From the IMG/VR virus record IMGVR_UViG_3300023276_001265: 64,000 nt of DNA; one strand, given 5' to 3'. The notes beneath the pieces were generated by a model. The model saw only the letters and a list, made by a program, of their open reading frames with translations. It was not told the DNA's origin and searched no databases. The position numbers were made by a program, and so were the translations under genes. The DNA comes from a virus. Shown in pieces: positions 3,612-48,144 of the stretch; positions within the stretch are counted from its first letter, which is position 1; the number at the start of each line of letters is the position of its first letter.

Positions 3612-3656
3612 TGTTCAACATCTAAGGTAAAAGGTTCTAGGTGATAGGAGGATCAA

Positions 3657-6600
3657 ATGTCAGACGCACGACTAAGGGACGCTGAGAGACGCTGGAGCGA
3701 GACCGGGGCGGACGATGATCTGTCAGTCCTCGTAATCGCCAGGAAACGTGCAGGACTTGAGATCCCTTATGGGATGCGAGTCCGCATGACGAAGCTGTTC
3801 TCAACCTTAGGTAAAAACAAGCGTGGCCTGGAAGAGTTCCGCCACAAGACCTCGGGAATGATCTTCGTGATGATTCCTGCTGGCGAGTTCATGATGGGCC
3901 GAAACGATGAGGACACTCCCCAGCAGAGGAGAGAGTTCGCTGTTGGAGTGCACCAAGTGCTGGATGTCGCGCCCCAGCAGAGGAGAGAGTTCGCTGAACC
4001 GTTCCTGGTCGCCAAGTATCCATGGACAGGGCGTGAGTGGTATCGGACCACAGGGGAGTTCCCCTCTCATTTCCCCACACGGGCGATGATGGACGAGTGG
4101 ATGCCAGTCGCAATCCCAGAAGACGCCACCTACGGCCCTGAAATCCGCATGGAGGCTATCGACAGCGATGGAAAGAGATGGGGAGACCACCCCGTCGAGT
4201 CCGTCTCGTGGGACCGTTGTCGCCAAGTCGAGGATCACATCAATAGGGTTGACTTCGTCCGTCAGTTCAATGCCCGATTCCTCCTCAAGAATGACCTAAA
4301 GGAACACGCATGGGTCAATTGGGTCGATTACACCCACGGACTCGCTTCAATCAATCTATCTCCAGCGAAGCTCAGACCTGATGGAGAGGTGGTGCTTCCA
4401 CACTTCGCAGGACTGGTCTTCACTGATGAGGTCGAGAGCCTCTACCAGGGCTGGCTCTGGAACGAGGACAACGAGCGTGCTGGCTTCCAGCTGCCGACCG
4501 AGTCGATGTGGGAATATGCGGCCCGTGCAGGGACAACAACTCGCTACCCCAACGGGGACACGGACGAGGACCTAGCGAAGATCGCCTGGTTCGGCGGTGA
4601 CTGGGATGATGGTCACAAGGCTGTCGGCCTGAAAGATGACAACAACTGGGGCCTCCACGATAACTGCGGCAACGTGTTCGAGTGGACTCGCTGCATGTGG
4701 CGTCAAACGGTCGAGGAAAACCCAGTGAACGGCTTCCTCGCAGTAGGGGAAGAATGCTCGGACCCTACGGTTACGGAATACCTCTGCGATTCATCGATCC
4801 AGGAACGTGTATCCGTACAATTAGCCGCTCCGCCCTTACCTCCTTCGAACGAGGATGGCAGTCAATCCAGCAACAACCCACAGACCTCGGAGTCCGACCC
4901 TGCTGGAGAGCAAAGTAGCCCGGACCCTACCCCAGTTTCACCCTCAGAGGGGGTGACTGGATCGTCGGAGCAGGGGTCCTCTGCATCAAGAGGCACACCG
5001 ACTACGCCCCTCACTACTACTGGGGAACCCGATCAGCCTGGAGGGGAAGGTGAACCTGGTTTTTTCGGCCAGACCCCTGCGGAGAGATCAAGCTCTCCGA
5101 CGGAGGGCTCTGCAACATCAGTAGTGCCCCAGGGGGCGGTCGATACTTCGACCAGATCTACGGGCGCTACGCAAGGTTCAGAATCCTCAAGTCCGTCTGC
5201 TGGACTCACAGCCTCAGCTGGAGAGAGCGGACCGCAAGTTTCAGGGACCTCCTCTGGAGAACCAGTCATCAGTCCCACGTCAGCACCCGACCAGTCTGGC
5301 GAGGACGATAGCTCGGATTTTACCCAGACAGCATCTTCGTCGGAAGCGATGGGTGGGCAGACCCAGCCTGCTCCGTCGACTTCAGTAGGGGATGCTACGA
5401 CCGAGACCAATACGACCCCAGCGGCGGGGTTAGGCCAACTTGGAGAGGACGGTAGCCCGGATTTTTCACAAACTTCGTCTATTCAGACGACCCCGACATC
5501 GCCTACTTCCAGAGAAACCTCCACAGGTCCCTCTTCGGACCAGTCCCAGACAGGTGGGTCACACGCGGAGGAGACTTCCACGACGCAGGACCCAACCGCC
5601 GGGGCGTCGAGCCTAGTAGTCGATGCTACGCAGGTGGACACCGACTCTCCTGGCGAGGACGATAGCTCGGACCCTACGCATGGCTCGGATACGTCCCTGA
5701 GTCGAGATTCTACTCCGCAGGAGTCGGAACTTACTACCAGCCCCCACGGGACGAATACCGATGCGGATGCAACGCCTGTAACCCAGGAGGACACCGGGCC
5801 GCAGGCACCAGGATCTTCTGGAGAGGGCGTTAGCTCGGATTTTCCTCAAGGTGGACAGTCCACCGAGATCCAACCTTCCCCCCAAACGAGTTCGCCCTCA
5901 GAGGGCGGCAAGGGTCTTCTTTCCTCGATTCAGGGTTCATCTACGCCTCCTACGTCCCACTTGAGGTCAGCGCGACCTACGCAGAAAACGGCCGATACAT
6001 CAAAGGAAACATCTGGGACACCTTGGAAGGAGAAGAGAACATCTTCTCCACAGGAGAACGATCTTCCAGACAGCGATACATCATCCTCGGCTCACAAGGA
6101 CTCCGACCGGCCTGGAGGTGCCGGTGACGCTGTCCCTTTAGCCTTAAGGAGCGTGTCGACCAGCTCCTCGGAACACTCACCATCGACAACAGCGCCTTCG
6201 AGGACAACTTCAAGTATCAAGCCAAGTATGGAGACGCCTTCCGGCAGGTCTACGCAGCAGACGACATCAGGCTCACCCAACAGTTCTACACCGACAACTG
6301 GATGGCCGAGGGAACAGTCATCATCAAGGGAGGACATTGGAACTCGTCCGCAAGTCAACTCACCATCGCCTGGGACGACCCAACCGACCCAGACGACTCC
6401 TACGGGGAGTGGGGACTCAGACCAGCCTGGAGAATTCGGTAGTGCTGTCCCTTTAGCCTTGCGGAGCGAGTCATTCCGCTCCTCAGAGACGGCTTCCTCC
6501 GAGAACGACTCGCCGAGGTCAACGACTATCTCACCGAGGTCAGGCACAGAGCTTTCTCCTCCCATGACACATCAAGAGTCATCGTCGTCCGAAGCTCGGG

Positions 6601-8255
6601 GCAACACATGCCGATCGCCGCAGGACCTTGCCCCAGACATCGATCCGGAGGTGCCAGGGCTGAATGCACCTCACCCAGAGCAGCCTGGCGGAGCCGTTAG
6701 CTCGGATTTTCCTCAAGGGTCGCAGCCATGTCCCAGCGCATCTTTGATCTCACAAGACGACAAGACGATAGCTGGCTCGTCGTCAGTCCAGAGATCGCAA
6801 GAGAGCTTAGACACGTCTACGACCACAGAGCCGACAGAATGCTCAGAGGAGGCTTCTTCAACTCCGACACCAGAGACCAGTTCGAGGATGGATGGGACAT
6901 CTGGTCTCTCGATCCCGATCTTCCCGACCGTATCGCTGGGCTCAGGCTCACCTGGCGAGCGAGGTGATTCGGATTTTCCCCCGTCGCCTTCATTGGAAGA
7001 GGGGGTGGAAAGACTGAGGTCCTCGGGCTTAACCTCTTCGCCTCCATCATTGATGTCGCAAATTTCGGATTCCCCAGACTCGACAAGGTCCTCAGAAACC
7101 ACGCCTGGTTCGACCTCCCAGAATTCAGCAGGTGGCGACAACACTCCTGCACAGATGGAGAGGACGACGGATTCAGAGCCTCCTGGAGAGGGCGGTGATT
7201 CGGATTTTCCGTTGACGACCCCCTCGCTCTCCTACGAGGAGGCGCCTGGGGCGCAGGATCCATCACCCCAATCGATGAACACCACCCATGGGTCGATGAC
7301 TGGGCGCTCGACCGGGATCTCCCAGACGAGACCGCAGGAGGGCGACCAGCCTGGAGAGGGAGGTGATTCGGATTTTCCCCAAGGGCCTTCCTCCACTACT
7401 ACGTTCCCCAGGACTCAGACACCTGGGAGGCCTGGGAGTGGACCGGCGGATCAGAGCTCATGTCAATCAGCCAACGAAGCAGAGTCCACATCAAGGGAGG
7501 AAGCTACTACTCCAACGCCGACACCACACCAAGCCCAACCGTCTGTAGCCGATCCTACGAATACACAGTCGCCACTGGAGCGGGGAGTTGGATCGGACTC
7601 CGATCAGCCTGGAGAGGGAGGTGATTCGGATTTTCCGTTGGGGAGTTCACTCGCTTCGACATCCCTTCCTTCAGTAACTTCTGGGCCACCACCGTCGCAT
7701 CCCGACTCCCCACTGGACCAACCATCATCGTCAGAGCCCCAAGCTGGCAGTGCGACACAGGAGACTGCCTTATCAGAGATCCTCGCTGGGCTGAGGAGCG
7801 AGATGACAACATCTCCCCAAGAGCGGCCTGGAGGTGCCGCAGACCCTGATACCTTTCCAGGTGGACTCGGACCGCATATTGATAAGTGGGCTCCTCTCCT
7901 CTCCGGCATTGATGAGACCTGGACCCGGACAGTCGCAGCAGCCATGCTCGAAAACGAATCAAGACATCTACAGCGTCTCCAGTCTGAGGTCGATGGAGAG
8001 GGCGTCGGCCCCTTTCTCCAATACGCCCTCCCTCTCATCAGACGGGCCAGTCCTCTCAACTTTCCCTACGTCCAGCCCATGCTCGGACCCATCGGAGGAA
8101 TGGCCTTCTACAGACCGGATCTCGCCCGTAGAAGAGACCCCATTGAGCGAGGAGGAAGTTGGTACGAGGACACCGGCGTTCTCGGACTTGATGAGAGAGG
8201 GGCTTCTGGTGCCATCAGCTCCAGAGGGCATCGACCTGCATGGCGCTCCCGGTAG
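3657..8255 (+). CDS. FGE-sulfatase (SUMF1/C-type-lectin fold) domain protein; zero-frame read-through product of a cassette array
   Basis: FVMIPAGEFMMG, HPVESVSW, FQLPTESMWEYAARAG, NNWGLHDNCGNVFEW; the closing RGGSW...GHRPAWR motif appears only about 1100 aa later; the intervening region is S/T/P/G-rich; GGAGG RBS. Confidence 0.9.
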   Translation: MSDARLRDAERRWSETGADDDLSVLVIARKRAGLEIPYGMRVRMTKLFSTLGKNKRGLEEFRHKTSGMIFVMIPAGEFMMGRNDEDTPQQRREFAVGVHQVLDVAPQQRREFAEPFLVAKYPWTGREWYRTTGEFPSHFPTRAMMDEWMPVAIPEDATYGPEIRMEAIDSDGKRWGDHPVESVSWDRCRQVEDHINRVDFVRQFNARFLLKNDLKEHAWVNWVDYTHGLASINLSPAKLRPDGEVVLPHFAGLVFTDEVESLYQGWLWNEDNERAGFQLPTESMWEYAARAGTTTRYPNGDTDEDLAKIAWFGGDWDDGHKAVGLKDDNNWGLHDNCGNVFEWTRCMWRQTVEENPVNGFLAVGEECSDPTVTEYLCDSSIQERVSVQLAAPPLPPSNEDGSQSSNNPQTSESDPAGEQSSPDPTPVSPSEGVTGSSEQGSSASRGTPTTPLTTTGEPDQPGGEGEPGFFGQTPAERSSSPTEGSATSVVPQGAVDTSTRSTGATQGSESSSPSAGLTASAGESGPQVSGTSSGEPVISPTSAPDQSGEDDSSDFTQTASSSEAMGGQTQPAPSTSVGDATTETNTTPAAGLGQLGEDGSPDFSQTSSIQTTPTSPTSRETSTGPSSDQSQTGGSHAEETSTTQDPTAGASSLVVDATQVDTDSPGEDDSSDPTHGSDTSLSRDSTPQESELTTSPHGTNTDADATPVTQEDTGPQAPGSSGEGVSSDFPQGGQSTEIQPSPQTSSPSEGGKGLLSSIQGSSTPPTSHLRSARPTQKTADTSKETSGTPWKEKRTSSPQENDLPDSDTSSSAHKDSDRPGGAGDAVPLALRSVSTSSSEHSPSTTAPSRTTSSIKPSMETPSGRSTQQTTSGSPNSSTPTTGWPREQSSSREDIGTRPQVNSPSPGTTQPTQTTPTGSGDSDQPGEFGSAVPLALRSESFRSSETASSENDSPRSTTISPRSGTELSPPMTHQESSSSEARGNTCRSPQDLAPDIDPEVPGLNAPHPEQPGGAVSSDFPQGSQPCPSASLISQDDKTIAGSSSVQRSQESLDTSTTTEPTECSEEASSTPTPETSSRMDGTSGLSIPIFPTVSLGSGSPGERGDSDFPPSPSLEEGVERLRSSGLTSSPPSLMSQISDSPDSTRSSETTPGSTSQNSAGGDNTPAQMERTTDSEPPGEGGDSDFPLTTPSLSYEEAPGAQDPSPQSMNTTHGSMTGRSTGISQTRPQEGDQPGEGGDSDFPQGPSSTTTFPRTQTPGRPGSGPADQSSCQSANEAESTSREEATTPTPTPHQAQPSVADPTNTQSPLERGVGSDSDQPGEGGDSDFPLGSSLASTSLPSVTSGPPPSHPDSPLDQPSSSEPQAGSATQETALSEILAGLRSEMTTSPQERPGGAADPDTFPGGLGPHIDKWAPLLSGIDETWTRTVAAAMLENESRHLQRLQSEVDGEGVGPFLQYALPLIRRASPLNFPYVQPMLGPIGGMAFYRPDLARRRDPIERGGSWYEDTGVLGLDERGASGAISSRGHRPAWRSR
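3918..3996 (+). repeat. 25-bp exact direct repeat (PQQRREFA x2)
   Basis: CCCCAGCAGAGGAGAGAGTTCGCTG at 3918-3942 and 3972-3996. Confidence 0.9.
4760..7849 (+). other. array of 14 alternative FGE C-terminal cassettes in the -1 frame
   Basis: Heptamer-to-stop coordinates: 4760-4918, 4922-5053, 5060-5311, 5315-5455, 5459-5665, 5669-5833, 5837-6127, 6134-6442, 6449-6700, 6704-6967, 6971-7198, 7202-7366, 7370-7624, 7628-7849. All end R-x-x-W-R-x-(R/K) (e.g. GLRPAWRIR*, GVRPTWRGR*, GFRASWRGR*); many have an RGGxW-like motif (LRGGDW, IKGGHW, LRGGAW, IKGGSY, TRGGDF, LRGGFF). Confidence 0.9.
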
Positions 8256-8565
8256 CATCGTCGTCAATGTACACGACGAGGTGCTTGTTGGACTTCCTGC
8301 GGACACCATGATCGGAGTTAGCATCAGTGGTCACATTCATCACCTCACCAATCAGTTCCGGCTAACCTCATTTGACTTCGTAGCTAGTCCTCCAGTGGCT
8401 GGGGCTTATCCCCGACTCGTCCCTCCCAGAACATCGCTACACACTTCATTAGGTGGAACCTGGTTTGAGGTCTTCCACAGAAGGTCAATTCCACGTTCTA
8501 GCTCTGGGGCTTTTCCAGTCTGTCGCAACCAATGGTCGACCCGGCCTTGCTGGCGTTCACGTTAA
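8254..8565 (+). other. 16th FGE C-terminal cassette, in the +1 frame
   Basis: 3' part of ORF 7834-8565: SLGGTWF...WSTRPCWRSR*, the same terminal signature as the other cassettes. Confidence 0.75.
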
Positions 8566-31764: not shown

Positions 31765-31820
31765 ATGGTCGGGCAAAAACGATATCAGCGGCAGCGGTAG
31801 AATGGTTGAGAGGAGGCCGG

Positions 31821-34800
31821 GTGGCAAAGAAGAAGAAGAAGCTGAAGCCGAAGTACAAGGATGAGCTATGGGATCCAACTGACCTTTGCGAGATCAGCCC
31901 AGAGGAGCTTATTGAAGCCGTAAAGGCTGAGGGTGCATATAGTTACGATCTTGAGACAACTGGGCTGTCCCCCCGCAAAGACCGAATAGACGGCATTGCC
32001 TTCTACGTCCCCAACGAGAAGAATCCAGAGCGTAAGCCGATCCGGGCGTGGTTCCCGTTCGCTGATGGAACAATGGACCACACTGTCGAAGGTGGCAAGG
32101 TAGTCGCGCTCCGGGCGACACTAGACCAGTTCGACACAATGACTCGCCTACGTCCAATTTGGGGACTCAAAGACGTAATCGCGATCCGGCACAACGGGAT
32201 CTTCGATGACGCATTCATCTACCTATCAAGCGGTCTCGATGAAAACATCATTGTCGAGAACATCATCGCCGACAGTATGCTCGCCGACTATGTCGCCGAC
32301 GAACGACGTAAGCGTTATGGATTGAAATTGCGGGTCGAACAGGTGTTCGGGCACAAGATGACCTCATATAAGGAGGCTGCGGCCGGACAGGCCTCGTTCG
32401 CGTTCGCCATGAAGAAGCCCCTTGGCGTCTACGCTTGTGACGATACGGCGTGGACCTACCGTCTCTGGCGCTGGGCCATGGAGTCGATCCGGAAACAGGA
32501 TCCTCCGCGAGAGCACAAGGATCAGTGGTGTTCTCCGCTAGACGATACGCCTGGAATCTACAGCGACCTGGAGAAGGTCTTCTGGAAGATTGAAATGAGA
32601 ATCCAGCGGATCCTCATGGAGATGGAGATCACTGGCTGCTTCATCGATTGGGAGTGGTTGGTCGTCGTCCAAGAACGGCTGCAGAAGCAGAAGAAGACAA
32701 TTGAGGAGGAGATCAAGGAGGAATACGGTTGGATGCCGAAGATTCGGTCGCCAAAGCAGACCTCAGACTTCCTCTACAACCCGGTCGACAAAGGTGGCAT
32801 CGGGCTCCCGACCCAAGGTGTCGATTACAACGCGGTCACGGACCAATACGCGACCGGTGACAAGGCGATTAAGCACAGGGCGAGGGAATTCCCCGTCGTT
32901 GCAAAGATCCTCAAATACAGGTCCCTAGGCGTTGTCGAGAGCTCGTTCTGTCAGAAGCTAATCGGACTGGCCCAGGCAGAGACCAGGATCTACGCACGCT
33001 TCAGGCAGACCGGCACGGTCATCGGTCGTCTGAGTTGTCTTTCCGGAATGTCAATGCTCTCTATACGCCTGAATGGGGCGAATCTAAGGCGTTTAGTCAA
33101 ACTCTCAGAACTTGGTCAGTTTATCGGATCTGATGTTAGGATCATCACTCATAAGGGTCGTGAGCGCCGCGTGTTGAATCTGTTCAACAAGGGGCCAGGC
33201 CTGATGTTTGAGGTGGTGGCGGATGACGGCAGCAAAATCAGATGCACAAGAGACCACAAATTTTTCACCAACTCCGGGTGGCGTGCTCTCAAGGACATCA
33301 AACGAGGGGACAGACTGCTTCGAGCCGAGGTATGTGAGGCTCAGGAAGCCGATAAGAGGCAGGCGGTGGGTGCTGGATCGACCGTCGTTCTTCAAGGTGT
33401 TCGTGGACGACAAGAGGCCGGTTTACAAGAAGTCGAAAATCTATGGTCTGACGGATGGGATTGCACTCACGTGCAAGGCGATCTACGGCTGGGAGATCGA
33501 TGTGTTCCGAGGCCGTTCGAGGCGACGTCCGGACTTAGACGAGATACTTCCACTTGCACCGACATGGGTGCGACGAGACAAGTGCAAAGGCTTCATACTC
33601 TCCAGGGAGTCGTTCAAGGAGATCTTCGTAGACAGCGACCTGACGCAGGAGAAGGCGAAGAAGACCTACGGGATATCTCACCAGGCCATGATCCGGGCCG
33701 TGAAGACTTACAAGGAGTTCCACGACCCACTGGCGATGAAGCACGGACGACTCCTGAGCGCGGCCAAACGGAAGGAGGAGGCGTTCTTTCCAAAGTCGGC
33801 TTTGGTGGAGGAGATGTCAGAGGGGAGATCCCCTCAAGAGATCGCGGCCAAGTTCGGCGTGGGGGAGTCGATTATTTTGATGGACATGTACCACCACGGA
33901 GTATCCGCGAACCCTCACGGAACCATGTCGTGGGTGAGCCGATTGACGGACAGCGAGTACTTGGCACTGGTCGCACTGAACCCACGAATAGGAGAGCTTC
34001 CAACGGACCCGAAGATGGCTTTCACCGAGCTGGTGGAGGCCTATCAGAGGCTGATGCAACTAGCCCACTCGGTCAAGCAGAGCGGATCGATCATGGGGGC
34101 GTTGATCGAGAGGGGGACGATCGAGAAGGATCATCTAACGTTCGCTTCAAATCGGGCGGAGATGAGGCTGTCCCGTGCGCTGACGGCGGTTGGAATCCAG
34201 CATCGGCGACTATTCCATTTCTACAAGAACTGGCAGGCCGACTTCGCCTGGATAGATCAGAAACTACTGGTCGAGGTAGATGGCGCGTGGCACCAGAAGT
34301 GTGCTGCTACCAAGGATCGGGATCAGAAGAAGACAAAGAAGGCGAAGGAGCTTGGTTACCGAGTAGTGAGGTTCACCACCAAGCAGGTCGACAAGAACCT
34401 TCCTACGGTGATTCGGGAGATCGCGTTCGAACTTGGACACGAGTTACCAGCATCACTCCAGTCAGCGTCGAAGATGTCTGGGACCTCACCGTAGAGGGGG
34501 ATCACAGTTATCTAGCTCACGGGTTTGTCAACAAAAACAGTGCGGACCCCGTCAACCTGATGAACCAGCCACGAGAAAAGGACCTGATCCGCAAGGCGTT
34601 CTGCGCTCACCTTGAAGATGACTACGACGATGATCGCAACGAGCTAACGCTGATCGATGCTGACTACGGGCAAATGGAACTGCGCATGGCAGCTCACCTC
34701 GCCCGTGAGAAGAACATGATCGAGGTCTTCTCGGCGGTTGATGGGTGTGAGGCTGGTCCCGACGGTGGTCCGTGCGAGCGATACACGTTCCACGAGTGCT

Positions 34801-36743
34801 TCGCCTGTCACACGTGCCAGCCTCCAATTGAGCTCCCTGACGGCACCATGTCCTGCATTAAGTGCGGGGCTACAGGAGGAGACATTGAACATCAGAAGCG
34901 GTGTCGTCACGTAGATCCTCACCAGCGAACGTCAGAGGACGTAGGCGTCCCTCGAAACCCTCTCGCTAAGTGTTTAGACGGGTCAACGCTGCTTCTGGGC
35001 ATGCAGCCCGGTAATGGCAAGTGTTGGATTCAACCAACGACGATTGAGGACTTGGTGGGCGATATCGAGCCCAACGAACATCGACACGTGCCTGTGACCA
35101 CCGTGACGACATCTGAGGGGCTGGCCACGGCTCACACTGCGCTCAAGCGTCACAACAAGCAGACGAAGATCATCATTACTAGACGCGCTATTGTGATTGC
35201 TACCGTCGATCATAGGTTCCAGGTGCTCGGAGAGCATGGAGCGTTAGACCCTAACACGCCGAGTTATGTGCACGTTCCTGGGCGCAGCCTTGTAGAGGCC
35301 CAAAACCTCGAAAAGGGTATGAAGCTCCCCTTCATCGATATGGGGCATGAACAATCGATGGACCCCATGTGGCACCAGACAGGTCGTCATGGTGCGCTGG
35401 AGATCAATCCGTTCACCAAGGAGGTCCAGGAGGGAGGACCGGCCACCATCGTCCTTGATGAGAAGTGGGCCTACTTTGCAGGAATCTTCGCCGGGGACGG
35501 CTGCGCGTCCGGAAACTCGTGTTCCATCTCTCACGGACATACGCCGGAATACAAGGAGTGGCGGGACACAGTTCGAGAGGCTTGTGATGCCGTAGGGCTT
35601 CCCACCTCAATGCGAGGGGACAAGCGTCAGACAGCGATCGGCTCACGCGTCGTTCGTCGCTACCTCTCTGGTCTGAGGATCTGTGAGGAACTCGGCAAGG
35701 GTGACCAGGGCGCGAAGATCATGCGTGTCCCGCCGTGGGTCCTCAGTGGCGGACCGAAGATGATGTGGTCCTACATCGCTGGCATCTTCGATACCGATGG
35801 AACGGTCGGTAAAAAGAAGGCTGGGACGGCCAGCTTCACTACGAAGTCCCCCGAATTCGCCGGTCAAATGGCCTTCATGCTTCGCTGGCTTGGGATGCCT
35901 GTCCTCTGCCAGCCAGGGTTCAACAAGACCTACGAGCGGTGGTACTACACGGTTCATGTTTTGGGAGAGGGTATTGAGCGGTTCGCTCGACACTGCCCAA
36001 TGCGGCTCAAGGAGAAGGTTGACCGGCTCCACGAGAGGGCCGCAACTATCAAGCGTAAGTGTGCACCTACTAACGATGAGGTGATTGCCGTCATTGATGG
36101 CGGCGAACGGACGGTCTACGACTTCCAGATCGACACGGAGGACCACCTCTACAATCAGGGCGGCTTGGTCGGTCACAATAATGCTAATTTCGGACTTTTG
36201 TACAGAATGGGTGCGCCAAAGTTCTGCGTGTATGCAGGGTTGTTTGATGAGGACGGCAAGCCCCGTGTCGGCTACGGACAAGAGTTGATCGAGAAGTGGC
36301 ACGCGGCTTACCCTGGCATCGCTGCTTGGCACGAGCGGGTTCTTCATCAGCTGTGCGTCGACAACTACATCGCCTACACCATTACGAGACGCAGACGTCG
36401 CCTCGACATTGAGTGGAAGAAGAACGATTACCGGGCAGGAACCCAGGCCATTCAGTTCAAGGTTTCAGGCAGCTGCCAGGACCTCATCAAGCTGGCCATG
36501 ATCAAGCTCTTCGAGGTGCGGAATCAAAAGGTCGCGAACACGCCTCCAGCTGAGTCGCGGCTCTGGAAGAAGTTCCGCTTCATGATCCAGGTCCACGACG
36601 AGTTGATCTTCGAAGGTCCGAAGGCGATGAAAGAGGAGCTCTGCCTCCTGGTCAAGGAGTGCATGGAGGGCGCAGCCAAGGGCATGCGTATTCCCTTCGT
36701 CGCTGATGCGCGGGCCGGGAGGACCTGGGATGAGCTACACTAG
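31821..36743 (+). CDS. polA: family A DNA polymerase with 3'-5' exonuclease and two inteins
   Basis: DLETTG, HNGIFD, YACDD; GTVIGRLS|S, motif A DADYGQMELR, motif B AK|NANFGLLY, motif C QVHDE; AGGAGG RBS before GTG at 31821. Confidence 0.95.
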   Translation: MAKKKKKLKPKYKDELWDPTDLCEISPEELIEAVKAEGAYSYDLETTGLSPRKDRIDGIAFYVPNEKNPERKPIRAWFPFADGTMDHTVEGGKVVALRATLDQFDTMTRLRPIWGLKDVIAIRHNGIFDDAFIYLSSGLDENIIVENIIADSMLADYVADERRKRYGLKLRVEQVFGHKMTSYKEAAAGQASFAFAMKKPLGVYACDDTAWTYRLWRWAMESIRKQDPPREHKDQWCSPLDDTPGIYSDLEKVFWKIEMRIQRILMEMEITGCFIDWEWLVVVQERLQKQKKTIEEEIKEEYGWMPKIRSPKQTSDFLYNPVDKGGIGLPTQGVDYNAVTDQYATGDKAIKHRAREFPVVAKILKYRSLGVVESSFCQKLIGLAQAETRIYARFRQTGTVIGRLSCLSGMSMLSIRLNGANLRRLVKLSELGQFIGSDVRIITHKGRERRVLNLFNKGPGLMFEVVADDGSKIRCTRDHKFFTNSGWRALKDIKRGDRLLRAEVCEAQEADKRQAVGAGSTVVLQGVRGRQEAGLQEVENLWSDGWDCTHVQGDLRLGDRCVPRPFEATSGLRRDTSTCTDMGATRQVQRLHTLQGVVQGDLRRQRPDAGEGEEDLRDISPGHDPGREDLQGVPRPTGDEARTTPERGQTEGGGVLSKVGFGGGDVRGEIPSRDRGQVRRGGVDYFDGHVPPRSIREPSRNHVVGEPIDGQRVLGTGRTEPTNRRASNGPEDGFHRAGGGLSEADATSPLGQAERIDHGGVDREGDDREGSSNVRFKSGGDEAVPCADGGWNPASATIPFLQELAGRLRLDRSETTGRGRWRVAPEVCCYQGSGSEEDKEGEGAWLPSSEVHHQAGRQEPSYGDSGDRVRTWTRVTSITPVSVEDVWDLTVEGDHSYLAHGFVNKNSADPVNLMNQPREKDLIRKAFCAHLEDDYDDDRNELTLIDADYGQMELRMAAHLAREKNMIEVFSAVDGCEAGPDGGPCERYTFHECFACHTCQPPIELPDGTMSCIKCGATGGDIEHQKRCRHVDPHQRTSEDVGVPRNPLAKCLDGSTLLLGMQPGNGKCWIQPTTIEDLVGDIEPNEHRHVPVTTVTTSEGLATAHTALKRHNKQTKIIITRRAIVIATVDHRFQVLGEHGALDPNTPSYVHVPGRSLVEAQNLEKGMKLPFIDMGHEQSMDPMWHQTGRHGALEINPFTKEVQEGGPATIVLDEKWAYFAGIFAGDGCASGNSCSISHGHTPEYKEWRDTVREACDAVGLPTSMRGDKRQTAIGSRVVRRYLSGLRICEELGKGDQGAKIMRVPPWVLSGGPKMMWSYIAGIFDTDGTVGKKKAGTASFTTKSPEFAGQMAFMLRWLGMPVLCQPGFNKTYERWYYTVHVLGEGIERFARHCPMRLKEKVDRLHERAATIKRKCAPTNDEVIAVIDGGERTVYDFQIDTEDHLYNQGGLVGHNNANFGLLYRMGAPKFCVYAGLFDEDGKPRVGYGQELIEKWHAAYPGIAAWHERVLHQLCVDNYIAYTITRRRRRLDIEWKKNDYRAGTQAIQFKVSGSCQDLIKLAMIKLFEVRNQKVANTPPAESRLWKKFRFMIQVHDELIFEGPKAMKEELCLLVKECMEGAAKGMRIPFVADARAGRTWDELH
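33036..34538 (+). mobile_element. intein 1 in polymerase (501 aa)
   Basis: Begins CLSG after GRLS; block B CTRDHKF; ends VWDLTVEGDHSYLAHGFVNKN|S (Lys at the penultimate position). Confidence 0.9.
33334..34494 (+). CDS. DUF559/Vsr-like endonuclease nested in the +1 frame of intein 1
   Basis: SNRAEMRL...ADFAWIDQKLLVEVDGAWH...DQKK..KAKELGYRVVRF, HTH-like segments upstream; frame open from 33208, start uncertain. Confidence 0.8.
   Translation: MRLRKPIRGRRWVLDRPSFFKVFVDDKRPVYKKSKIYGLTDGIALTCKAIYGWEIDVFRGRSRRRPDLDEILPLAPTWVRRDKCKGFILSRESFKEIFVDSDLTQEKAKKTYGISHQAMIRAVKTYKEFHDPLAMKHGRLLSAAKRKEEAFFPKSALVEEMSEGRSPQEIAAKFGVGESIILMDMYHHGVSANPHGTMSWVSRLTDSEYLALVALNPRIGELPTDPKMAFTELVEAYQRLMQLAHSVKQSGSIMGALIERGTIEKDHLTFASNRAEMRLSRALTAVGIQHRRLFHFYKNWQADFAWIDQKLLVEVDGAWHQKCAATKDRDQKKTKKAKELGYRVVRFTTKQVDKNLPTVIREIAFELGHELPASLQSASKMSGTSP
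34971..36179 (+). mobile_element. intein 2 in polymerase with LAGLIDADG endonuclease (403 aa)
   Basis: CLDG..., ATVDHRF, FAGIFAGDG and IAGIFDTDG, VYDFQI...GLVGHN. Confidence 0.9.
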
Positions 36744-44005: not shown

Positions 44006-46285
44006 ATGGCACTTCGCGACGATGCGCTAAACTACCTGCGCCAGGTATTCGGCCGTGAACGCGCCGAGCGTGATCGGGCTGAATCTCCCTCGGCCGAGGC
44101 CGAGAAGCACATCCCGTCATCCATCTTCTCGGTATGGGGCCGAGAAGACGTCGGCGGACTACTCAGCGTCTCGCAGAACCTGATGGACAGGTATGCAGAT
44201 TATGAGCAGATGGATGATTATCCGGACATCAACTGTCTCACTGCAGATACTACGATTTACGTGGTTGAAGACTCCATTATCAAGCCCACTAGGATCCACG
44301 ACCTAGCTGCTCACGGCGGTGGCCCCAAGATCCTGGCCTACGACACAGAGAAGGACAAGCTCGTCGTAGTGGCGTCTGAGAATCCTCGCATTTCTGGCGA
44401 TAAGCAGGAGGTGGTTGAGGTCGGGTTTAGCAATGGTGAGAAAATCAAGTGCACCCCTGGGCACAAGTTCCTCACGGTCGAGCACGATTACATCAATGCC
44501 TCTGATCTAGTCGAGGGAACGGTTGTGGTCTCTTGTTGGTCTGGGTTTGACCCAACAGGAATGACCGCCTTTCTGCACTCAACATCAGGCCGATTGAAGG
44601 TGACCCAGGCCGCGATTCCGGCTGGGGTCGAAGACGTCTACGACGTCACAACTAAGACCCACAACTTCATCGCTAATGGGATTGTTGTCCATAACAGCGC
44701 CCACCACTACTTCACAAACGATGCGACCCAGCCGGATATTGACACCGGAAAAACCGTTTGGGTCCATTCTAGCGACGAAGCTATCAAGAGCATGTCGGAC
44801 GTGCTGCTCAACAAGCGGCTACGAATTGAAGACGATATCTGGTCCATGGTCTACACGACCGTGAAGATGGGCAATAACTACGAGGAGGTGCTGATCACTG
44901 ATAACGGCGTTGTCGGCCTCAACTCTCTTCCCTGCCCCACCATGCGCCGTGTCGAGCAGTCCAATGGCTCGATCATTGGTTACGTCCAGGACATCACTGG
45001 GAAGTTCACGCAGGACGCCTCGGACCTTCGCGGGATGCTGGCCGGTCAGGCTAAGGTCCCGGACCACGTCGCCCTGTTCGAGGAGTGGCAAGTCCTACAT
45101 ACGCGCCTTCGTGGCACGGCCCGCAGAACTCCATACGGGTTCGGTGTGGCTGATGGAGCTCGCTGGATCTGGAAGAGACTGGTTCTTCTCGAAGACTCGA
45201 TGCTCATCTACAAGCTGACCCGAGCTCCAGCCCGGTTCGCCTTCTACATCGACGTCACCGATATTCCATCTGACAAGGTGGAGTCCTTCCTACGCAAAGC
45301 CAAGCAAGACCTGCGGAAGCAGAAACTTGTTAACCCGAGGACCCAGCGCCTCGACATGCGTATGAATCCGATGGACAACCTTCAGGACTTCTTCATCGCG
45401 GTCCGCGAAAATCGCGAGCTAGCCCGTGTAGAGGTTCTCCAAGGCCCTGACTATCAGGCGACCGAGGATGTGGAGTACTTCCAGCGGAAGCTACACGGCG
45501 TCCTGAAGATCCCCAGGAACTATCTAGGGCAAGACGACGGCATCCCAGCCCGATCGATCCTCTCTTACGAGGATGTGCGGTCCGCACGCGTCACGATGGG
45601 AATCCAGCGCGAGGTCAGGAACAGCATTCGTCGTCTGATTCAGATCGATCTTGCGGCCCGAGGGATCAACCCCTTCAGGCAAGACCTTCAGGTGATGATG
45701 ACGGTCCCGTCCGGGATCTATGAGCTGGCGCACAACGAGATCAAGAACGCGAGAGCTGACTTCGCAACGCGAGTCCAGCCGTTTGTCTCAATGCGCTATA
45801 TCCAGGAGAAGATTCTCAAACTGACCGGCGATCAGATAGAGCGGATCGAGAAGGAGCGGGAAGAGGATCAAAAGAAGGAAGCTGCTCAGCAACAGGCTAT
45901 GGGCGGAGGTGATGATGGCGGTGGTGGCGGCGCTCCTGCTGCTGATGGTTCTCCGCCAGATGACGCTCCAATGCACCCAGGAAACGCTGAGATCGGCCCA
46001 CCACCGGGCTCTGGGGGTCGACCAGACAGTAAGTCGGAGTGGAAGTCTTACGATAGGGCGCGGCGCATTGAGGAAAAACGTGATCGCATGTCCCGGCAGC
46101 GTGATCAAGAGATTCAAGACACAATGCACAAGGTCATTGTCGGTAATAAGCAGATGGCCGCACAGCTCGCCCATCAACAGCAATTCTTCCGCGAGTTCAA
46201 GCACGCCGCATTCTCCCGGAACGGGAACGGCGGTCTGATCTCAGCCCCTCAGGGCGGCGGTCATCGACGACGTCGCATTAAGTGA
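44006..46285 (+). CDS. portal protein (T4 gp20-like) with mini-intein
   Basis: YADYEQMDDYPDI, LLEDSMLIYKLTRAPARFAFYIDV, DFFI, EDVEYFQRKLHGVLKIP. Confidence 0.92.
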   Translation: MALRDDALNYLRQVFGRERAERDRAESPSAEAEKHIPSSIFSVWGREDVGGLLSVSQNLMDRYADYEQMDDYPDINCLTADTTIYVVEDSIIKPTRIHDLAAHGGGPKILAYDTEKDKLVVVASENPRISGDKQEVVEVGFSNGEKIKCTPGHKFLTVEHDYINASDLVEGTVVVSCWSGFDPTGMTAFLHSTSGRLKVTQAAIPAGVEDVYDVTTKTHNFIANGIVVHNSAHHYFTNDATQPDIDTGKTVWVHSSDEAIKSMSDVLLNKRLRIEDDIWSMVYTTVKMGNNYEEVLITDNGVVGLNSLPCPTMRRVEQSNGSIIGYVQDITGKFTQDASDLRGMLAGQAKVPDHVALFEEWQVLHTRLRGTARRTPYGFGVADGARWIWKRLVLLEDSMLIYKLTRAPARFAFYIDVTDIPSDKVESFLRKAKQDLRKQKLVNPRTQRLDMRMNPMDNLQDFFIAVRENRELARVEVLQGPDYQATEDVEYFQRKLHGVLKIPRNYLGQDDGIPARSILSYEDVRSARVTMGIQREVRNSIRRLIQIDLAARGINPFRQDLQVMMTVPSGIYELAHNEIKNARADFATRVQPFVSMRYIQEKILKLTGDQIERIEKEREEDQKKEAAQQQAMGGGDDGGGGGAPAADGSPPDDAPMHPGNAEIGPPPGSGGRPDSKSEWKSYDRARRIEEKRDRMSRQRDQEIQDTMHKVIVGNKQMAAQLAHQQQFFREFKHAAFSRNGNGGLISAPQGGGHRRRRIK
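44234..44695 (+). mobile_element. mini-intein in portal (154 aa)
   Basis: CLTADT..., CTPGHKF, VYDVTTKTHNFIANGIVVHN|S. Confidence 0.92.
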
Positions 46286-46974: not shown

Positions 46975-47100
46975 GGAAAAATAGCTTTTAGTCAACTGCG
47001 GCCAAAACCGCTTGCCCGATGACGAGCTTCAAGGCCGGTTAACAGCAGCCCACGGCCTGGTGACCGTAAATTTGTTCCTGACATTGAGCGCGGCATTCTT
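46971..47100 (-). ncRNA. putative omegaRNA with guide
   Basis: IS605-like right end (GCAAGC...CAGTTGAC, ending at 46991) downstream of tnpB; the guide would be about 46990-46971. Confidence 0.4.
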
Positions 47101-48144
47101 GCTCATCGGACTTTCGTTGCCACACGAATCGCAGAGGAAGGTGTGTTTTGTGATGCTCCCAGAAGCTCCACAAAGCGAGCACCTCTTCTCGTTACCGGAT
47201 ACGTTCACGTAATAAACCGGTATCGCCGCAGCCGCAGCCTTCTCTTCAATCCTACGACGAAGCACTTCATAGAAGTGCGGCCTCATCGATGGCTTGCTTC
47301 TTTTCCTCTTCGAAGGTGGAGGGATGCGAAGGTCCTCGATGACGAGGATTGATCCGCTTCCAACCCACTCAACGAGTCGGTTAGCTGCTGCGTGGCAAAA
47401 AGTCCTAGTTCGCATGTGACGCCGTCTGCTTAGCCGTTTGAGGACTCGACGCACAGAACGCGTCTCAAGTCCATCTGCCTTACGCACAGCCAGTCGCCGC
47501 TCAAGTCTTCTCTTTGTTTTTCGGCTTGTCTCCTCCATTACATTCTGAGCAACGGTGACGATTCGGAGAGATTTCCCCTCGGCGCTTACCGCTGCTACTT
47601 CATTCTTACTCCCTACTGCAACGCCAGCAGGAAGGGTTCCTTCTCGTTTTGATTCTTTAAGAGTCACGGACACGGTCGCTACGAGTCGTCCCCTTTTAAG
47701 GGAGACCGCGAGTGTGTCGAAGGACTTCACGTTTTTATAGTCAGCCTCGAACCGGGCTGGAATGCTGCAAGGTATGTCCTTACGGCCCGCAATTGTCCAA
47801 ATTCTGATCGTCTCTTTACGGGGTGGGCAGGCATCGCGCTTTGCCTTGCCGATCAAGAATAGGGCGCGTGGCTTACTGAAGTGAATCGGCCCATATATCC
47901 TCCGGTTTCTCCTCCGAGCGCGTGAGTATTCAGATGCCACCGATCGAATAGCAGTGCATGTGAGCTGAGATTTCAGAGAGCCTTTCACTTTTGCGTAGCT
48001 GAGCTGATGCATATCTACTGCGGAAAGCGCGGTTCCGTCTTCAAACGCAATCTCAGACACGCGCTCTTGGATGAGTCTGAATGACTCAATTGTTGCCATA
48101 AGATCAGCGTCGTTGGCAATCCTAAGTGGAAGCACTTTCTGCAT
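47029..48144 (-). CDS. tnpB: TnpB-family protein, predicted nuclease-dead
   Basis: TnpB layout with VIEDL and CxxC..CxxC; RuvC-I reads GVAVG (no Asp) and RuvC-III reads MSKNAA (no Asp); no tnpA nearby. Confidence 0.85.
   Translation of the reverse strand: MQKVLPLRIANDADLMATIESFRLIQERVSEIAFEDGTALSAVDMHQLSYAKVKGSLKSQLTCTAIRSVASEYSRARRRNRRIYGPIHFSKPRALFLIGKAKRDACPPRKETIRIWTIAGRKDIPCSIPARFEADYKNVKSFDTLAVSLKRGRLVATVSVTLKESKREGTLPAGVAVGSKNEVAAVSAEGKSLRIVTVAQNVMEETSRKTKRRLERRLAVRKADGLETRSVRRVLKRLSRRRHMRTRTFCHAAANRLVEWVGSGSILVIEDLRIPPPSKRKRSKPSMRPHFYEVLRRRIEEKAAAAAIPVYYVNVSGNEKRCSLCGASGSITKHTFLCDSCGNESPMSKNAALNVRNKFTVTRPWAAVNRP

Follow-up and report, generated by a model that had tools for sequence, protein, structure and literature searches.

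A phage gene with two open reading frames and a putative array of frameshifted C-type-lectin-fold end-pieces

Introduction

Why are two overlapping reading frames maintained over approximately 3.1 kb of a phage gene, and does the array of protein modules that they contain reflect a translational mechanism or a silent archive of donor cassettes? The question is raised by positions 4760-7849 (+) of a 64,000-nt stretch of viral DNA (IMG/VR record IMGVR_UViG_3300023276_001265), the whole of which is referred to here as the window and which derives from a large T4-like myovirus obtained from a metagenome. The sole long open reading frame (ORF) over this region, at 3657-8255 (+), encodes a predicted product of 1532 amino acids (P0001) and lies in a stop-to-stop frame at 3648-8255; this frame is termed the zero frame. 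In a preliminary description of the DNA, the region was proposed to be dual coding, with selection against stops in the zero frame, and read-through of the zero frame was held to be functionally required. The extent given for the region was accurate, with the array running from its first junction (junction 0, slip site at 4763-4766) to the end of the last -1 cassette at 7849. The best reading of the locus, and in our estimation the probable one, is that ribosomes translate the zero frame as a 'conveyor' and undergo programmed -1 frameshifting at a series of sites along it.

Stop codons, codon usage and composition of the two frames

The zero frame contains no stops between 4760 and 7849 (1029-1030 codons), while 28 are present in the +1 frame, which is not depleted of them. 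Fourteen stops (seven TAG and seven TGA) occur in the -1 frame, thirteen of which fall at one position of a repeated junction (..AWRGR-stop-LGFS.. or ..stop-LGPY.., where the zero frame reads ..DQPGEGGDSDFP..), and the last closes the final cassette (..AAWRCRRP-stop). The -1 frame had been characterized as protein-like and aromatic-rich, and its 14.0% of aromatic residues, as opposed to 7.4% in ordinary proteins and 1.7% in the zero frame, agrees with this, but it forms a row of 14 stop-terminated modules rather than a single ORF. These modules are 44-104 codons in length and stop-free inside; upstream of 4664 the -1 frame closes approximately every 15 codons.

As the preliminary description had proposed, the codons of the -1 frame were redrawn with its peptide held fixed, using the codon usage of 19 ordinary window genes (2000 draws). 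This yielded 18.0±3.6 zero-frame stops with a minimum of 5, and none of the 2000 draws was open. Shuffling the region's own synonymous codons left only 2.6±1.2 zero-frame stops, with 3.5% of the draws open, from which it follows that stop avoidance is achieved mainly through a global and very unusual choice of codons. In the reverse test, where the zero-frame peptide was held fixed, 51±6 (window usage) or 44±5 (own codons) stops are expected in the -1 frame, as opposed to the 13-14 that are seen.

CTC makes up 82% of the Leu codons in the -1 frame (33% in ordinary genes), GTC 91% of the Val codons (40%) and ATC 87% of the Ile codons (65%), in keeping with the heavy use of these codons reported initially; TTC, which had been counted among them, accounts for 78% of the Phe codons but does the same in ordinary genes. 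The NTA-R and NTG-A combinations that would place stops in the zero frame were also said to be avoided, and there are indeed only 2 NTA codons where 25.9 are expected and 7 NTG codons where 65.2 are expected. Met is encoded 5 times, as opposed to an expected 19.

The zero frame (approximately residues 370-1400) is, as first described, rich in Ser, Thr and Pro (20%, 13% and 12%, respectively), with a further 10% Gly. Hydrophobic residues constitute 11.2% of its product, against an expectation of 26.4±1.3% given the -1 peptide (minimum 22.6%, 500 draws), and the share of S, T, P, G, E, D, Q, A and N is 83% where 60% is expected on the same basis. The -1 peptide is 31.7% hydrophobic and ordinary proteins 31.1%. 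C or A occupies 72% of the third bases of the -1 codons, which are also the second bases of the zero-frame codons, and it is this that renders the zero frame hydrophilic. Both frames are thus under selection, though of different kinds, with the zero frame selected for composition beyond mere openness.

Shadow frames of ordinary genes in the window had been estimated to close within about 250 codons. Those of the 19 ordinary genes close within at most 163 codons, with one exception which exceeds the estimate: a +1-frame ORF of approximately 429 codons at 33208-34494 (+), inside the ORF at 31806-36743 and over the intein region of a family-A DNA polymerase. This ORF may be an endonuclease gene in another frame.

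Sequence constraint in the -1 and zero frames

When mismatches between relatives are assigned to zero-frame codon positions within nucleotide-conserved blocks, the constant domain that precedes the array shows the classic wobble pattern (357/283/904). The cassettes show no wobble excess (94/116/119). The ratio of nonsynonymous to synonymous differences (pN/pS) was determined for gapless orthologous segments of the window and the related locus L084. In the -1 frame, pN/pS is 0.41 for cassette 7 and 0.26 for cassette 8, and the corresponding zero-frame values are 1.78 and 1.08; the zero frame of the constant domain, as a control, gives 0.33. The -1 frame thus codes in the normal way, under constraint on its sequence, and the only requirements on the zero frame are that it be open and hydrophilic. 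The term 'dual coding' therefore applies in the sense that both frames are constrained, but the coding is asymmetric, since the sequence of the zero frame is free to vary and not conserved (pN/pS at least 1). The array in the window is not a tandem repeat.

The constant domain and its missing end-piece

The constant N-terminal part of the gene (3657-4766, +), which is read in the zero frame, comprises approximately the first four-fifths of an FGE-sulfatase/C-type-lectin-fold domain. The FGE-sulfatase family PF03781 matches amino acids 70-363 at profile positions 5-208 of 255 (E-value: 5.6e-19; 69.2 bits; cut-off: 23.3), and the zero frame adjoining this domain lacks the C-terminal strands of the fold (RVxRGGSW ... 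GFR; profile positions ~209-255). Many of the -1 modules end in (R/K)GGx(W/F/Y) ... G(L/F)RxxWRxR-stop, and the simplest -1 modules of related loci, 49 residues in length, match PF03781 at positions 213-254 of 255 (best E-value: 3.5e-6; 27.3 bits). The constant part and the end strands are contiguous only with a frameshift.

Among solved structures, the closest relative of the constant part is TvpA (PDB 2Y3C), with PvdO and FGE as other PDB relatives. A profile of the constant part matches TvpA residues 132-236, and cassette profile A3, which includes cassette 1 of the window, matches residues 253-293 of 294 (E-value: 3.9e-6), a C-terminal segment which is the region diversified by the diversity-generating retroelement (DGR) of this protein. 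On the basis of these profile matches, the -1 modules are predicted to be the missing C-terminal piece of the FGE/C-type-lectin fold of the constant domain. A two-chain structure prediction of the constant part with cassette 1 gave an ipSAE of 0.87 (0.00 for the best of three controls). Of 80 solved complexes, 58 attain this score, as do 2 of 110 mismatched pairs, both figures being only approximate here because custom alignments were used. The prediction runs agree in at least 92% of contacts, with a partner pLDDT of at least 76. Because FGE-fold structures are solved, the result is to be read as likeness to a split fold rather than as binding between two chains. TvpA and PvdO are non-FGE members of the fold, and as such binding is predicted to be a more likely role for the products than catalysis.

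Junction signals

Eight related loci (L001, L002, L003, L082, L084, L085, L086 and L087) were read in addition to the window, giving a set of nine loci with 68 -1 modules and 56 internal junctions. An in-phase Z_ZZN motif is located within 18 nt after the -1 stop at 55 of the 56 internal junctions (C_CCT: 35; T_TTT: 17; G_GGT: 2; T_TTC: 1), where the background rate of such motifs is 4.6% per codon, and 23 of the 55 are canonical X_XXY_YYZ heptamers, such as C_CCT_TTA, T_TTT_TTC and G_GGT_TTC. Slip motifs are found at all 13 internal junctions of the window and at junction 0. The residue encoded at the slip spot varies between Pro, Phe and Gly, while the site remains slippery. Among the WRxR-type junctions of the five loci examined first, a motif is missing only from the terminal ..AAWRCRx-stop junctions of the window, L001 and L082, beyond which there is no -1 module. 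Six tetramers permit -1 shifting in Escherichia coli, U_UUU and C_CCU being two of them, and rules for heptamers are set out in the same source (PMC4066793).

A purine-rich tract resembling a Shine-Dalgarno (SD) sequence (..TGGAGAGGGAGGTGA..) is situated 3-15 nt upstream of the slip motif, the best case being a perfect GGAGGTGAT. With an assumed anti-SD sequence, pairing of this tract with the 3′ end of the 16S rRNA averages -9.6 kcal/mol (36 junctions in five loci), as opposed to approximately -5 kcal/mol elsewhere, and strengthens in the 5′ to 3′ direction in both the window (rho: -0.57; p: 0.04) and L002 (rho: -0.86; p: 0.003). A rise in SD strength along the array is what later cassettes would need to obtain a share of the ribosomes. 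Across the window junctions (4916-7622), pairing energies start near -6 kcal/mol on the 5′ side of the array and reach -16 kcal/mol by its 3′ end, and this trend is shared by three relatives.

The stops that close the 68 modules are TGA in 43 cases, TAG in 19 and TAA in six, and this variation in codon identity indicates that it is the stop function itself which is conserved. A start codon (ATG, GTG or TTG) is present within the first 12 codons of only nine of the 68 cassettes, and the -1 frame of the window array contains five ATG, no GTG and approximately one TTG codon in 1030 codons. As at programmed -1 sites, an in-phase slip motif is thus found together with a -1 ORF that represents a conserved part of the protein and lacks an independent start. 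Beyond the last junction, a TTT_C motif is conserved.

Conservation of the layout in related loci

Eleven members of the family, with zero-frame ORFs of 871-1733 amino acids, can be identified in public data, with P0005 (69% identity) and P0008 among the closest relatives of the window protein. All nine loci that were read share a common plan, in which a zero-frame constant domain is followed by 2-14 -1 modules and then by a terminal module in the zero frame, despite constant domains that share only 51-69% identity. In four of the loci, including the window, a +1-frame module is located beyond the zero-frame stop. Synteny is kept wherever the flanking genes have family hits, with a HerA-like ATPase encoded upstream and an HTH replication protein downstream. 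Orthologous cassettes are found at differing ranks between relatives.

None of the nine loci has a stop in its zero frame over this stretch (871-1661 codons), where 5-15 stops are expected in the four larger arrays to which the test was applied, the two-cassette array of L001 being too short to inform on openness. As in the window, both frames of the larger arrays of L002, L003 and L082 are open well beyond chance. L002 harbors an insert (L002:1632-2267) which contains a 211-codon +1-frame ORF and is flanked by a duplicated constant-domain end, and the zero frame runs through this insert without a stop where 13.9±3.2 are expected. By eye, the inserted ORF appears HNH-nuclease-like; it has no Pfam hit.

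At junction 0 (4746-4769, +), the constant domain ends in ..GEECSD-P, where the slip tetramer C_CCT lies in phase at 4763-4766 and there is no -1 stop. Even the first cassette is out of frame with this domain. This junction repeats, in phase, the junction at 5657-5678, and its zero-frame motif GExC(S/P)D(P/L) is kept in all five loci tested. The other end of the array is formed by the terminal zero-frame cassette (7850-8255, +), which encodes an N-terminal fragment of a capsid protein followed by ..RGGSWYEDTG..GHRPAWRSR-stop and represents the default, unshifted end of the gene. A +1-frame ORF (7807-8565, +) is open across this cassette and continues into a further cassette at 8256-8565 (..GGTWF...RPCWRSR-stop). 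The same arrangement is found in L001, L002 and L082, and in each of the four loci the +1 frame contains no stops over the terminal zero-frame cassette, where 1.8-3.2 are expected.

Capsid and portal fragments in the cassettes

Capsid homology was established by blastp comparison against the Gp23-type major capsid protein of a related genome, G001. The terminal zero-frame cassette (7851-8252) corresponds to capsid residues 28-138 (41% amino acid identity over 111 amino acids; E-value: 4e-25), and cassette 6 to residues 405-449 (39% identity; E-value: 7e-11), with a weak Pfam match to Gp23 in addition. The L082 ortholog of cassette 9 matches capsid residues 344-415 (E-value: 5e-4), with the window copy giving a weak match (E-value: 0.11), and cassettes of other loci, L084-L087 among them, cover residues 82-133, 343-415 and 423-469. 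Searches of the zero-frame tail and the +1 ORFs against Pfam and PHROGs returned nothing, and the capsid homology surfaced only against the relative's own capsid protein. Each diverged capsid fragment precedes an FGE end-piece, as though displayed on a lectin scaffold.

A portal-like fragment (..RYADYxxMDxY..) is encoded in the zero frame of two relatives, at L002:2777-2920 and L082:9531-9680, immediately before a slip site, and matches residues 52-76 of the window portal protein (E-values: 1e-4 and 2e-8, respectively). The FGE end-piece that follows is in the -1 frame in both cases, and the two halves of the module would as such be joined only by a frameshift. A portal likeness had also been proposed for cassettes 4 and 7 of the window, but this is not significant against the window portal at an E-value of 0.05 or below. 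That these proteins take part in phage-host or phage-phage conflict, by displaying capsid and portal fragments, is a guess.

Proposed mechanism

Under serial frameshifting, ribosomes would cross the array in the zero frame, producing a hydrophilic and probably disordered spacer. At each junction, where the SD-like tract upstream of a slippery tetramer or heptamer would act as the signal, a fraction of the ribosomes would slip back by one base, read the next -1 cassette and stop. Those which never slip would finish in the terminal zero-frame cassette, and the conserved TTT_C after the last junction may permit a +1 shift into the module ending at 8565. The outcome would be a ladder of about 16 proteins from one mRNA, sharing a body and differing in spacer length and binding end. 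The argument for a translated zero frame draws on several of the features above, namely its openness and composition, the uninterrupted frame across the L002 insert, the slip motifs, the start-less cassettes, the out-of-frame first cassette and the terminal cassette, which is genuine and obliges unshifted ribosomes to cross the array.

Several points weigh against this reading. The frameshifting step itself is one that we infer from the sequence, and since the zero frame must be open in any event for the terminal cassette to be reached, openness alone is no proof of internal shifting. Only tetramers, which are weak in E. coli, are present at 32 of the 55 slip sites; shifting at tetramers in this host amounts to 0.26-5.6%, and this despite a strong stimulator placed downstream (PMC4066793). 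Downstream of the junctions, no conserved RNA structure was found (minimum free energy: -12.3 vs -9.9±4.2), and a search of Rfam returned no match. The SD-like tract overlaps the conserved -1 W-R-G-R-stop codons and cannot be separated from conservation at the protein level, the WRGR-type end is also kept at two terminal cassettes where no slip is needed, and the anti-SD used for the pairing energies may not be that of the host. For cassette 0, purifying selection on the -1 frame is not clearly seen (pN/pS of 1.05, and 0.66 in the zero frame), and a Pfam search with ten of the window cassettes yielded no significant FGE-sulfatase match, with weak hits only (Gp23; E-value: 0.076). Furthermore, the products of late cassettes would contain up to approximately 1000 spacer residues inside a domain, which is structurally unusual.

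A more elaborate proposal is that the locus constitutes a hard-wired diversity generator at the level of translation, in which about 16 FGE/C-type-lectin-fold proteins would be produced through serial low-efficiency -1 shifts and one +1 shift, with an inert spacer, graded SD-like stimulators and, possibly, capsid and portal decoys or baits directed at host sensors or competing phages. We consider the chances of this being correct to be evenly balanced.

Alternative explanations

The alternative that survives best, unlikely as we consider it to be, is an archive for recombination with a single expression site. Only junction 0 would shift in such a system, the reserve cassettes being moved by homologous recombination between junction repeats of approximately 35-47 nt, within a genome or between co-infecting ones, and the zero frame would be open just for the sake of the terminal cassette, which does provide an independent reason for openness. 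The repeats at the junctions are in phase with one another and 60-90% similar, the phage has a RecA/UvsX-like recombinase among its genes, and the variable number of cassettes (2-14) and their shifting ranks make gain, loss and exchange at the junctions clear; given this variation between relatives, recombination at the junction repeats has very likely shaped the array as well. Recombination between direct repeats only deletes, however, and a reserve which depletes itself is a poor archive. There are also no near-identical copies of cassettes that would suggest recent conversion. The separate in-phase slip motif and -1 stop kept at 55 of the 56 internal junctions and the rise in SD strength would both be needless if only junction 0 worked, and hydrophobic residues are purged from the zero frame along its whole length. 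A silent archive accounts for neither the openness in nine loci, nor the selected composition, nor the open frame across the L002 insert. The initial preference for a translational mechanism over such an archive, together with the view that zero-frame read-through is required, is therefore supported.

A second possibility, to which we attach very little probability, is that the cassettes are separate small peptides, translated from internal starts behind the SD-like tracts and completing the constant body in trans. An SD-like tract overlapping the preceding stop does resemble the junction between genes in an operon, and structure prediction assembles the constant part with cassette 1 when the two are given as separate chains. 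Yet start codons are nearly absent from the -1 frame, as seen in the small number of cassettes (9/68) with one near their beginning, and the modules of L002 and L082 that are split between the zero and -1 frames at a slip site run counter to independent initiation. Separate peptides would, moreover, provide no reason for an open and hydrophilic zero frame.

It is likewise highly improbable that the cassettes are the variable and template repeats of a DGR, rewritten by a reverse transcriptase. This idea arises from the nearest solved relative, the DGR variable protein TvpA, to whose C-terminal end the cassettes align, and from the canonical cassettes of L002 and L003, which differ almost only at -1-frame NNC codons with a -1 pN/pS of 3.7-6.1, in the manner of a DGR variable region. 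The NNC pattern is, however, also demanded by the two-frame constraint, under which the third-base C is fixed, and most cassettes vary in length and content rather than just at adenine-templated sites. A reverse transcriptase (PF00078) was not found in the 203-kb, 89%-complete L001 record, in the L082 record or among the approximately 38 window ORFs scanned, and no template-like repeat copy was found within the loci examined.

Expression of the zero frame alone, as a long disordered Ser/Thr/Pro-rich protein with the -1 modules as relics of ancient 3′-end duplications, is strongly disfavoured. Gene callers predict the zero-frame ORF in the 11 family members, and pN/pS pooled over all nucleotide-conserved blocks differs little between the frames (-1 frame: 0.67; zero frame: 0.85), although this pool mixes the constant-domain end, ordinary cassettes and hypervariable canonical cassettes. 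Relics would be expected to contain about 44-51 stops instead of 13-14 that are nearly all at one conserved position; in addition, purifying selection is seen in the -1 frame of the best orthologous pairs but not in their zero frame, it is the -1 frame that carries the FGE and capsid homology, the zero-frame wobble pattern is missing from the cassettes, and the layout persists in nine loci with diverged constant domains.

Three further candidates were set aside: a shufflon or other invertible cassette system, which is at odds with the co-oriented cassettes (all on the + strand) and missing inverted repeats (a search for repeats flanking the cassettes gave only one 17-nt imperfect inverted pair, with no adjacent recombinase); translational bypassing from junction 0 to later junctions, as a bypassed stretch need not be open or hydrophilic; and transcriptional slippage or phase variation, as homopolymer runs are only 3-6 nt long.

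Organization of the array in the window

Over cassettes 0-13, the zero-frame spacer (4767-7849, +) is open and rich in Ser, Thr, Pro, Gly, Glu and Asp, with a sequence that is not conserved. All of the cassettes below are on the + strand and in the -1 frame. Cassette 0 (4763-4918; PYGYGIPLRF...VRPCWRAK-stop) has orthologs in L084 and L001. It is followed by cassette 1 (4919-5053), a minimal FGE end-piece (..FTLRGGDW...GTRSAWRGR-stop). The canonical cassettes to which the latter belongs (L002:3043-3192, L003:6371-6520, L003:6860-7009 and window 4919-5053) are almost identical across phages, and those of L002 and L003 differ mainly at the NNC codons mentioned above.

Cassette 2 (5054-5311) is entered at the canonical heptamer T_TTT_TTC, and cassette 3 (5312-5455) has the slip motif T_TTT. 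Cassette 4 (5456-5665; ..VTRGGDF..HRLSWRGR-stop) shows a likeness by eye to L002 3508-3768 (DIAYFQRNLHRSL vs DVAYFLRNMHRAL). A similar by-eye likeness to L002 3193-3351 is seen in cassette 5 (5666-5833), the slip motif of which is C_CCT. Cassette 6 (5834-6127) consists of a C-terminal capsid-protein fragment and then an FGE end-piece.

The heptamer C_CCT_TTA provides the entry to both cassette 7 (6128-6442; ..IIKGGHW...WGLRPAWRIR-stop) and cassette 8 (6443-6700), each of which has a gapless ortholog in L084. A capsid-like segment is present in cassette 9 (6701-6967; ..MLRGGFF..AGLRLTWRAR-stop), and cassette 10 (6968-7198) resembles L002 4939-5190 and L085 3759-3983 by eye through an ..EVLGLNLF.. 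motif. The slip motif T_TTT is situated behind GGCGGTGAT for cassette 11 (7199-7366; ..LLRGGAW...GGRPAWRGR-stop) and behind the perfect SD-like tract, with a pairing energy of -15.9 kcal/mol, for cassette 12 (7367-7624). The latter carries its own WEWT..RVHIKGGSYY..SWIGLRSAWRGR-stop and therefore spans the whole C-terminal third of the fold. Cassette 13 (7625-7849; ..AAWRCRRP-stop) is the last in the -1 frame, is followed by no -1 slip motif and has orthologs in L001, L082 and L084.

Comparison with known systems

The dnaX gene (tau/gamma), the IS3/IS911 orfAB genes and cdd of Bacillus subtilis combine an internal SD-like tract with an in-phase slip site and yield products that share an N-terminus. 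The junctions of the array resemble those of E. coli dnaX, IS911 and cdd in having the SD-like tract a few bases upstream of the slippery motif. Systems of the dnaX type, however, contain one site per gene and give two products, whereas the array gene has at least 13 serial sites, each of which would open a different folded module; its unshifted frame is an overprinted spacer, and no downstream stem-loop was found. In the lambda G/GT system, which is conserved across tailed phages, a fixed fraction of ribosomes shifts by -1, adding a different C-terminal part. This system differs from the array in that a single site is used and the shifted product extends the protein, without completion of a fold, a cassette array or a long two-frame overlap. 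The lambda G/GT tail-assembly-chaperone frameshift is mentioned in PMC13581612.

TvpA of Treponema denticola and the Mtd protein of a Bordetella phage, both of which are DGR proteins, share with the array products the same fold and the same varying C-terminal segment and, under the frameshifting model, many binding variants per gene. Variation in the DGR proteins arises by reverse transcription; the array would instead present 14-16 hard-wired cassettes that are chosen at translation. Shufflons (R64 pilV with Rci), the Mu G segment (Gin) and the P1 C segment also join a constant N-terminal part to alternative C-terminal cassettes. They do so through DNA inversion, with inverted repeats and a dedicated recombinase, in contrast to the co-oriented cassettes of the array, which are frame-shifted from the body of the protein. 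Overprinted viral genes are similar in that both frames of one stretch are constrained, with distorted codon usage in one of them. Known overprints usually encode two proteins with separate functions and extend over tens to a few hundred codons. The array differs in sharing about 1030 codons between frames, one of which is constrained only for openness and hydrophilicity.

In the literature, single-site programmed frameshifting, DGRs acting on this fold and viral overprinting were found, and a serial frameshift cassette array was not. The parts of the system (-1 frameshift signals, a variable C-type-lectin end and overprinting) are thus known, but their assembly is undescribed. If the shifting is real, the locus would contain by far the most productive frameshift sites in a single gene, and would represent a third route to diversity in phage binding proteins, beside DGR hypermutation and DNA inversion, that requires no enzyme and no change in the DNA. 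It would also be a case in nature of a reading frame on which selection acts for openness and lack of stickiness alone, which bears on the evolution of overprinted genes and disordered linkers, and its junctions represent a naturally graded set of elements, each combining an SD-like tract with a slip site. In the output of gene callers, each of these loci appears as a single giant protein of low complexity, and the real products would consequently be invisible in databases. The occurrence of capsid and portal fragments on a lectin scaffold, encoded in a replication-gene region, may point to an unexplored layer of phage-host or phage-phage conflict.

Genomic context of the window

The window comes from a contig of 157,525 bp. 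The array gene is flanked by genes encoding a HerA-like ATPase and replication proteins. Elsewhere in the window, a Gp20-type portal protein with an intein, a tail sheath protein, a family-A DNA polymerase with inteins, a RecA/UvsX-like protein and a DnaB/primase/helicase replication module are encoded. The T4-type portal gene with its intein is located at 44006-46285, and the DNA polymerase gene (31806-36743) carries LAGLIDADG domains along with its intein. A TnpB/Cas12f-like ORF, with a Cas12f1-like TNB domain, is situated at 47029-48144 (-) between the portal and tail-sheath genes.

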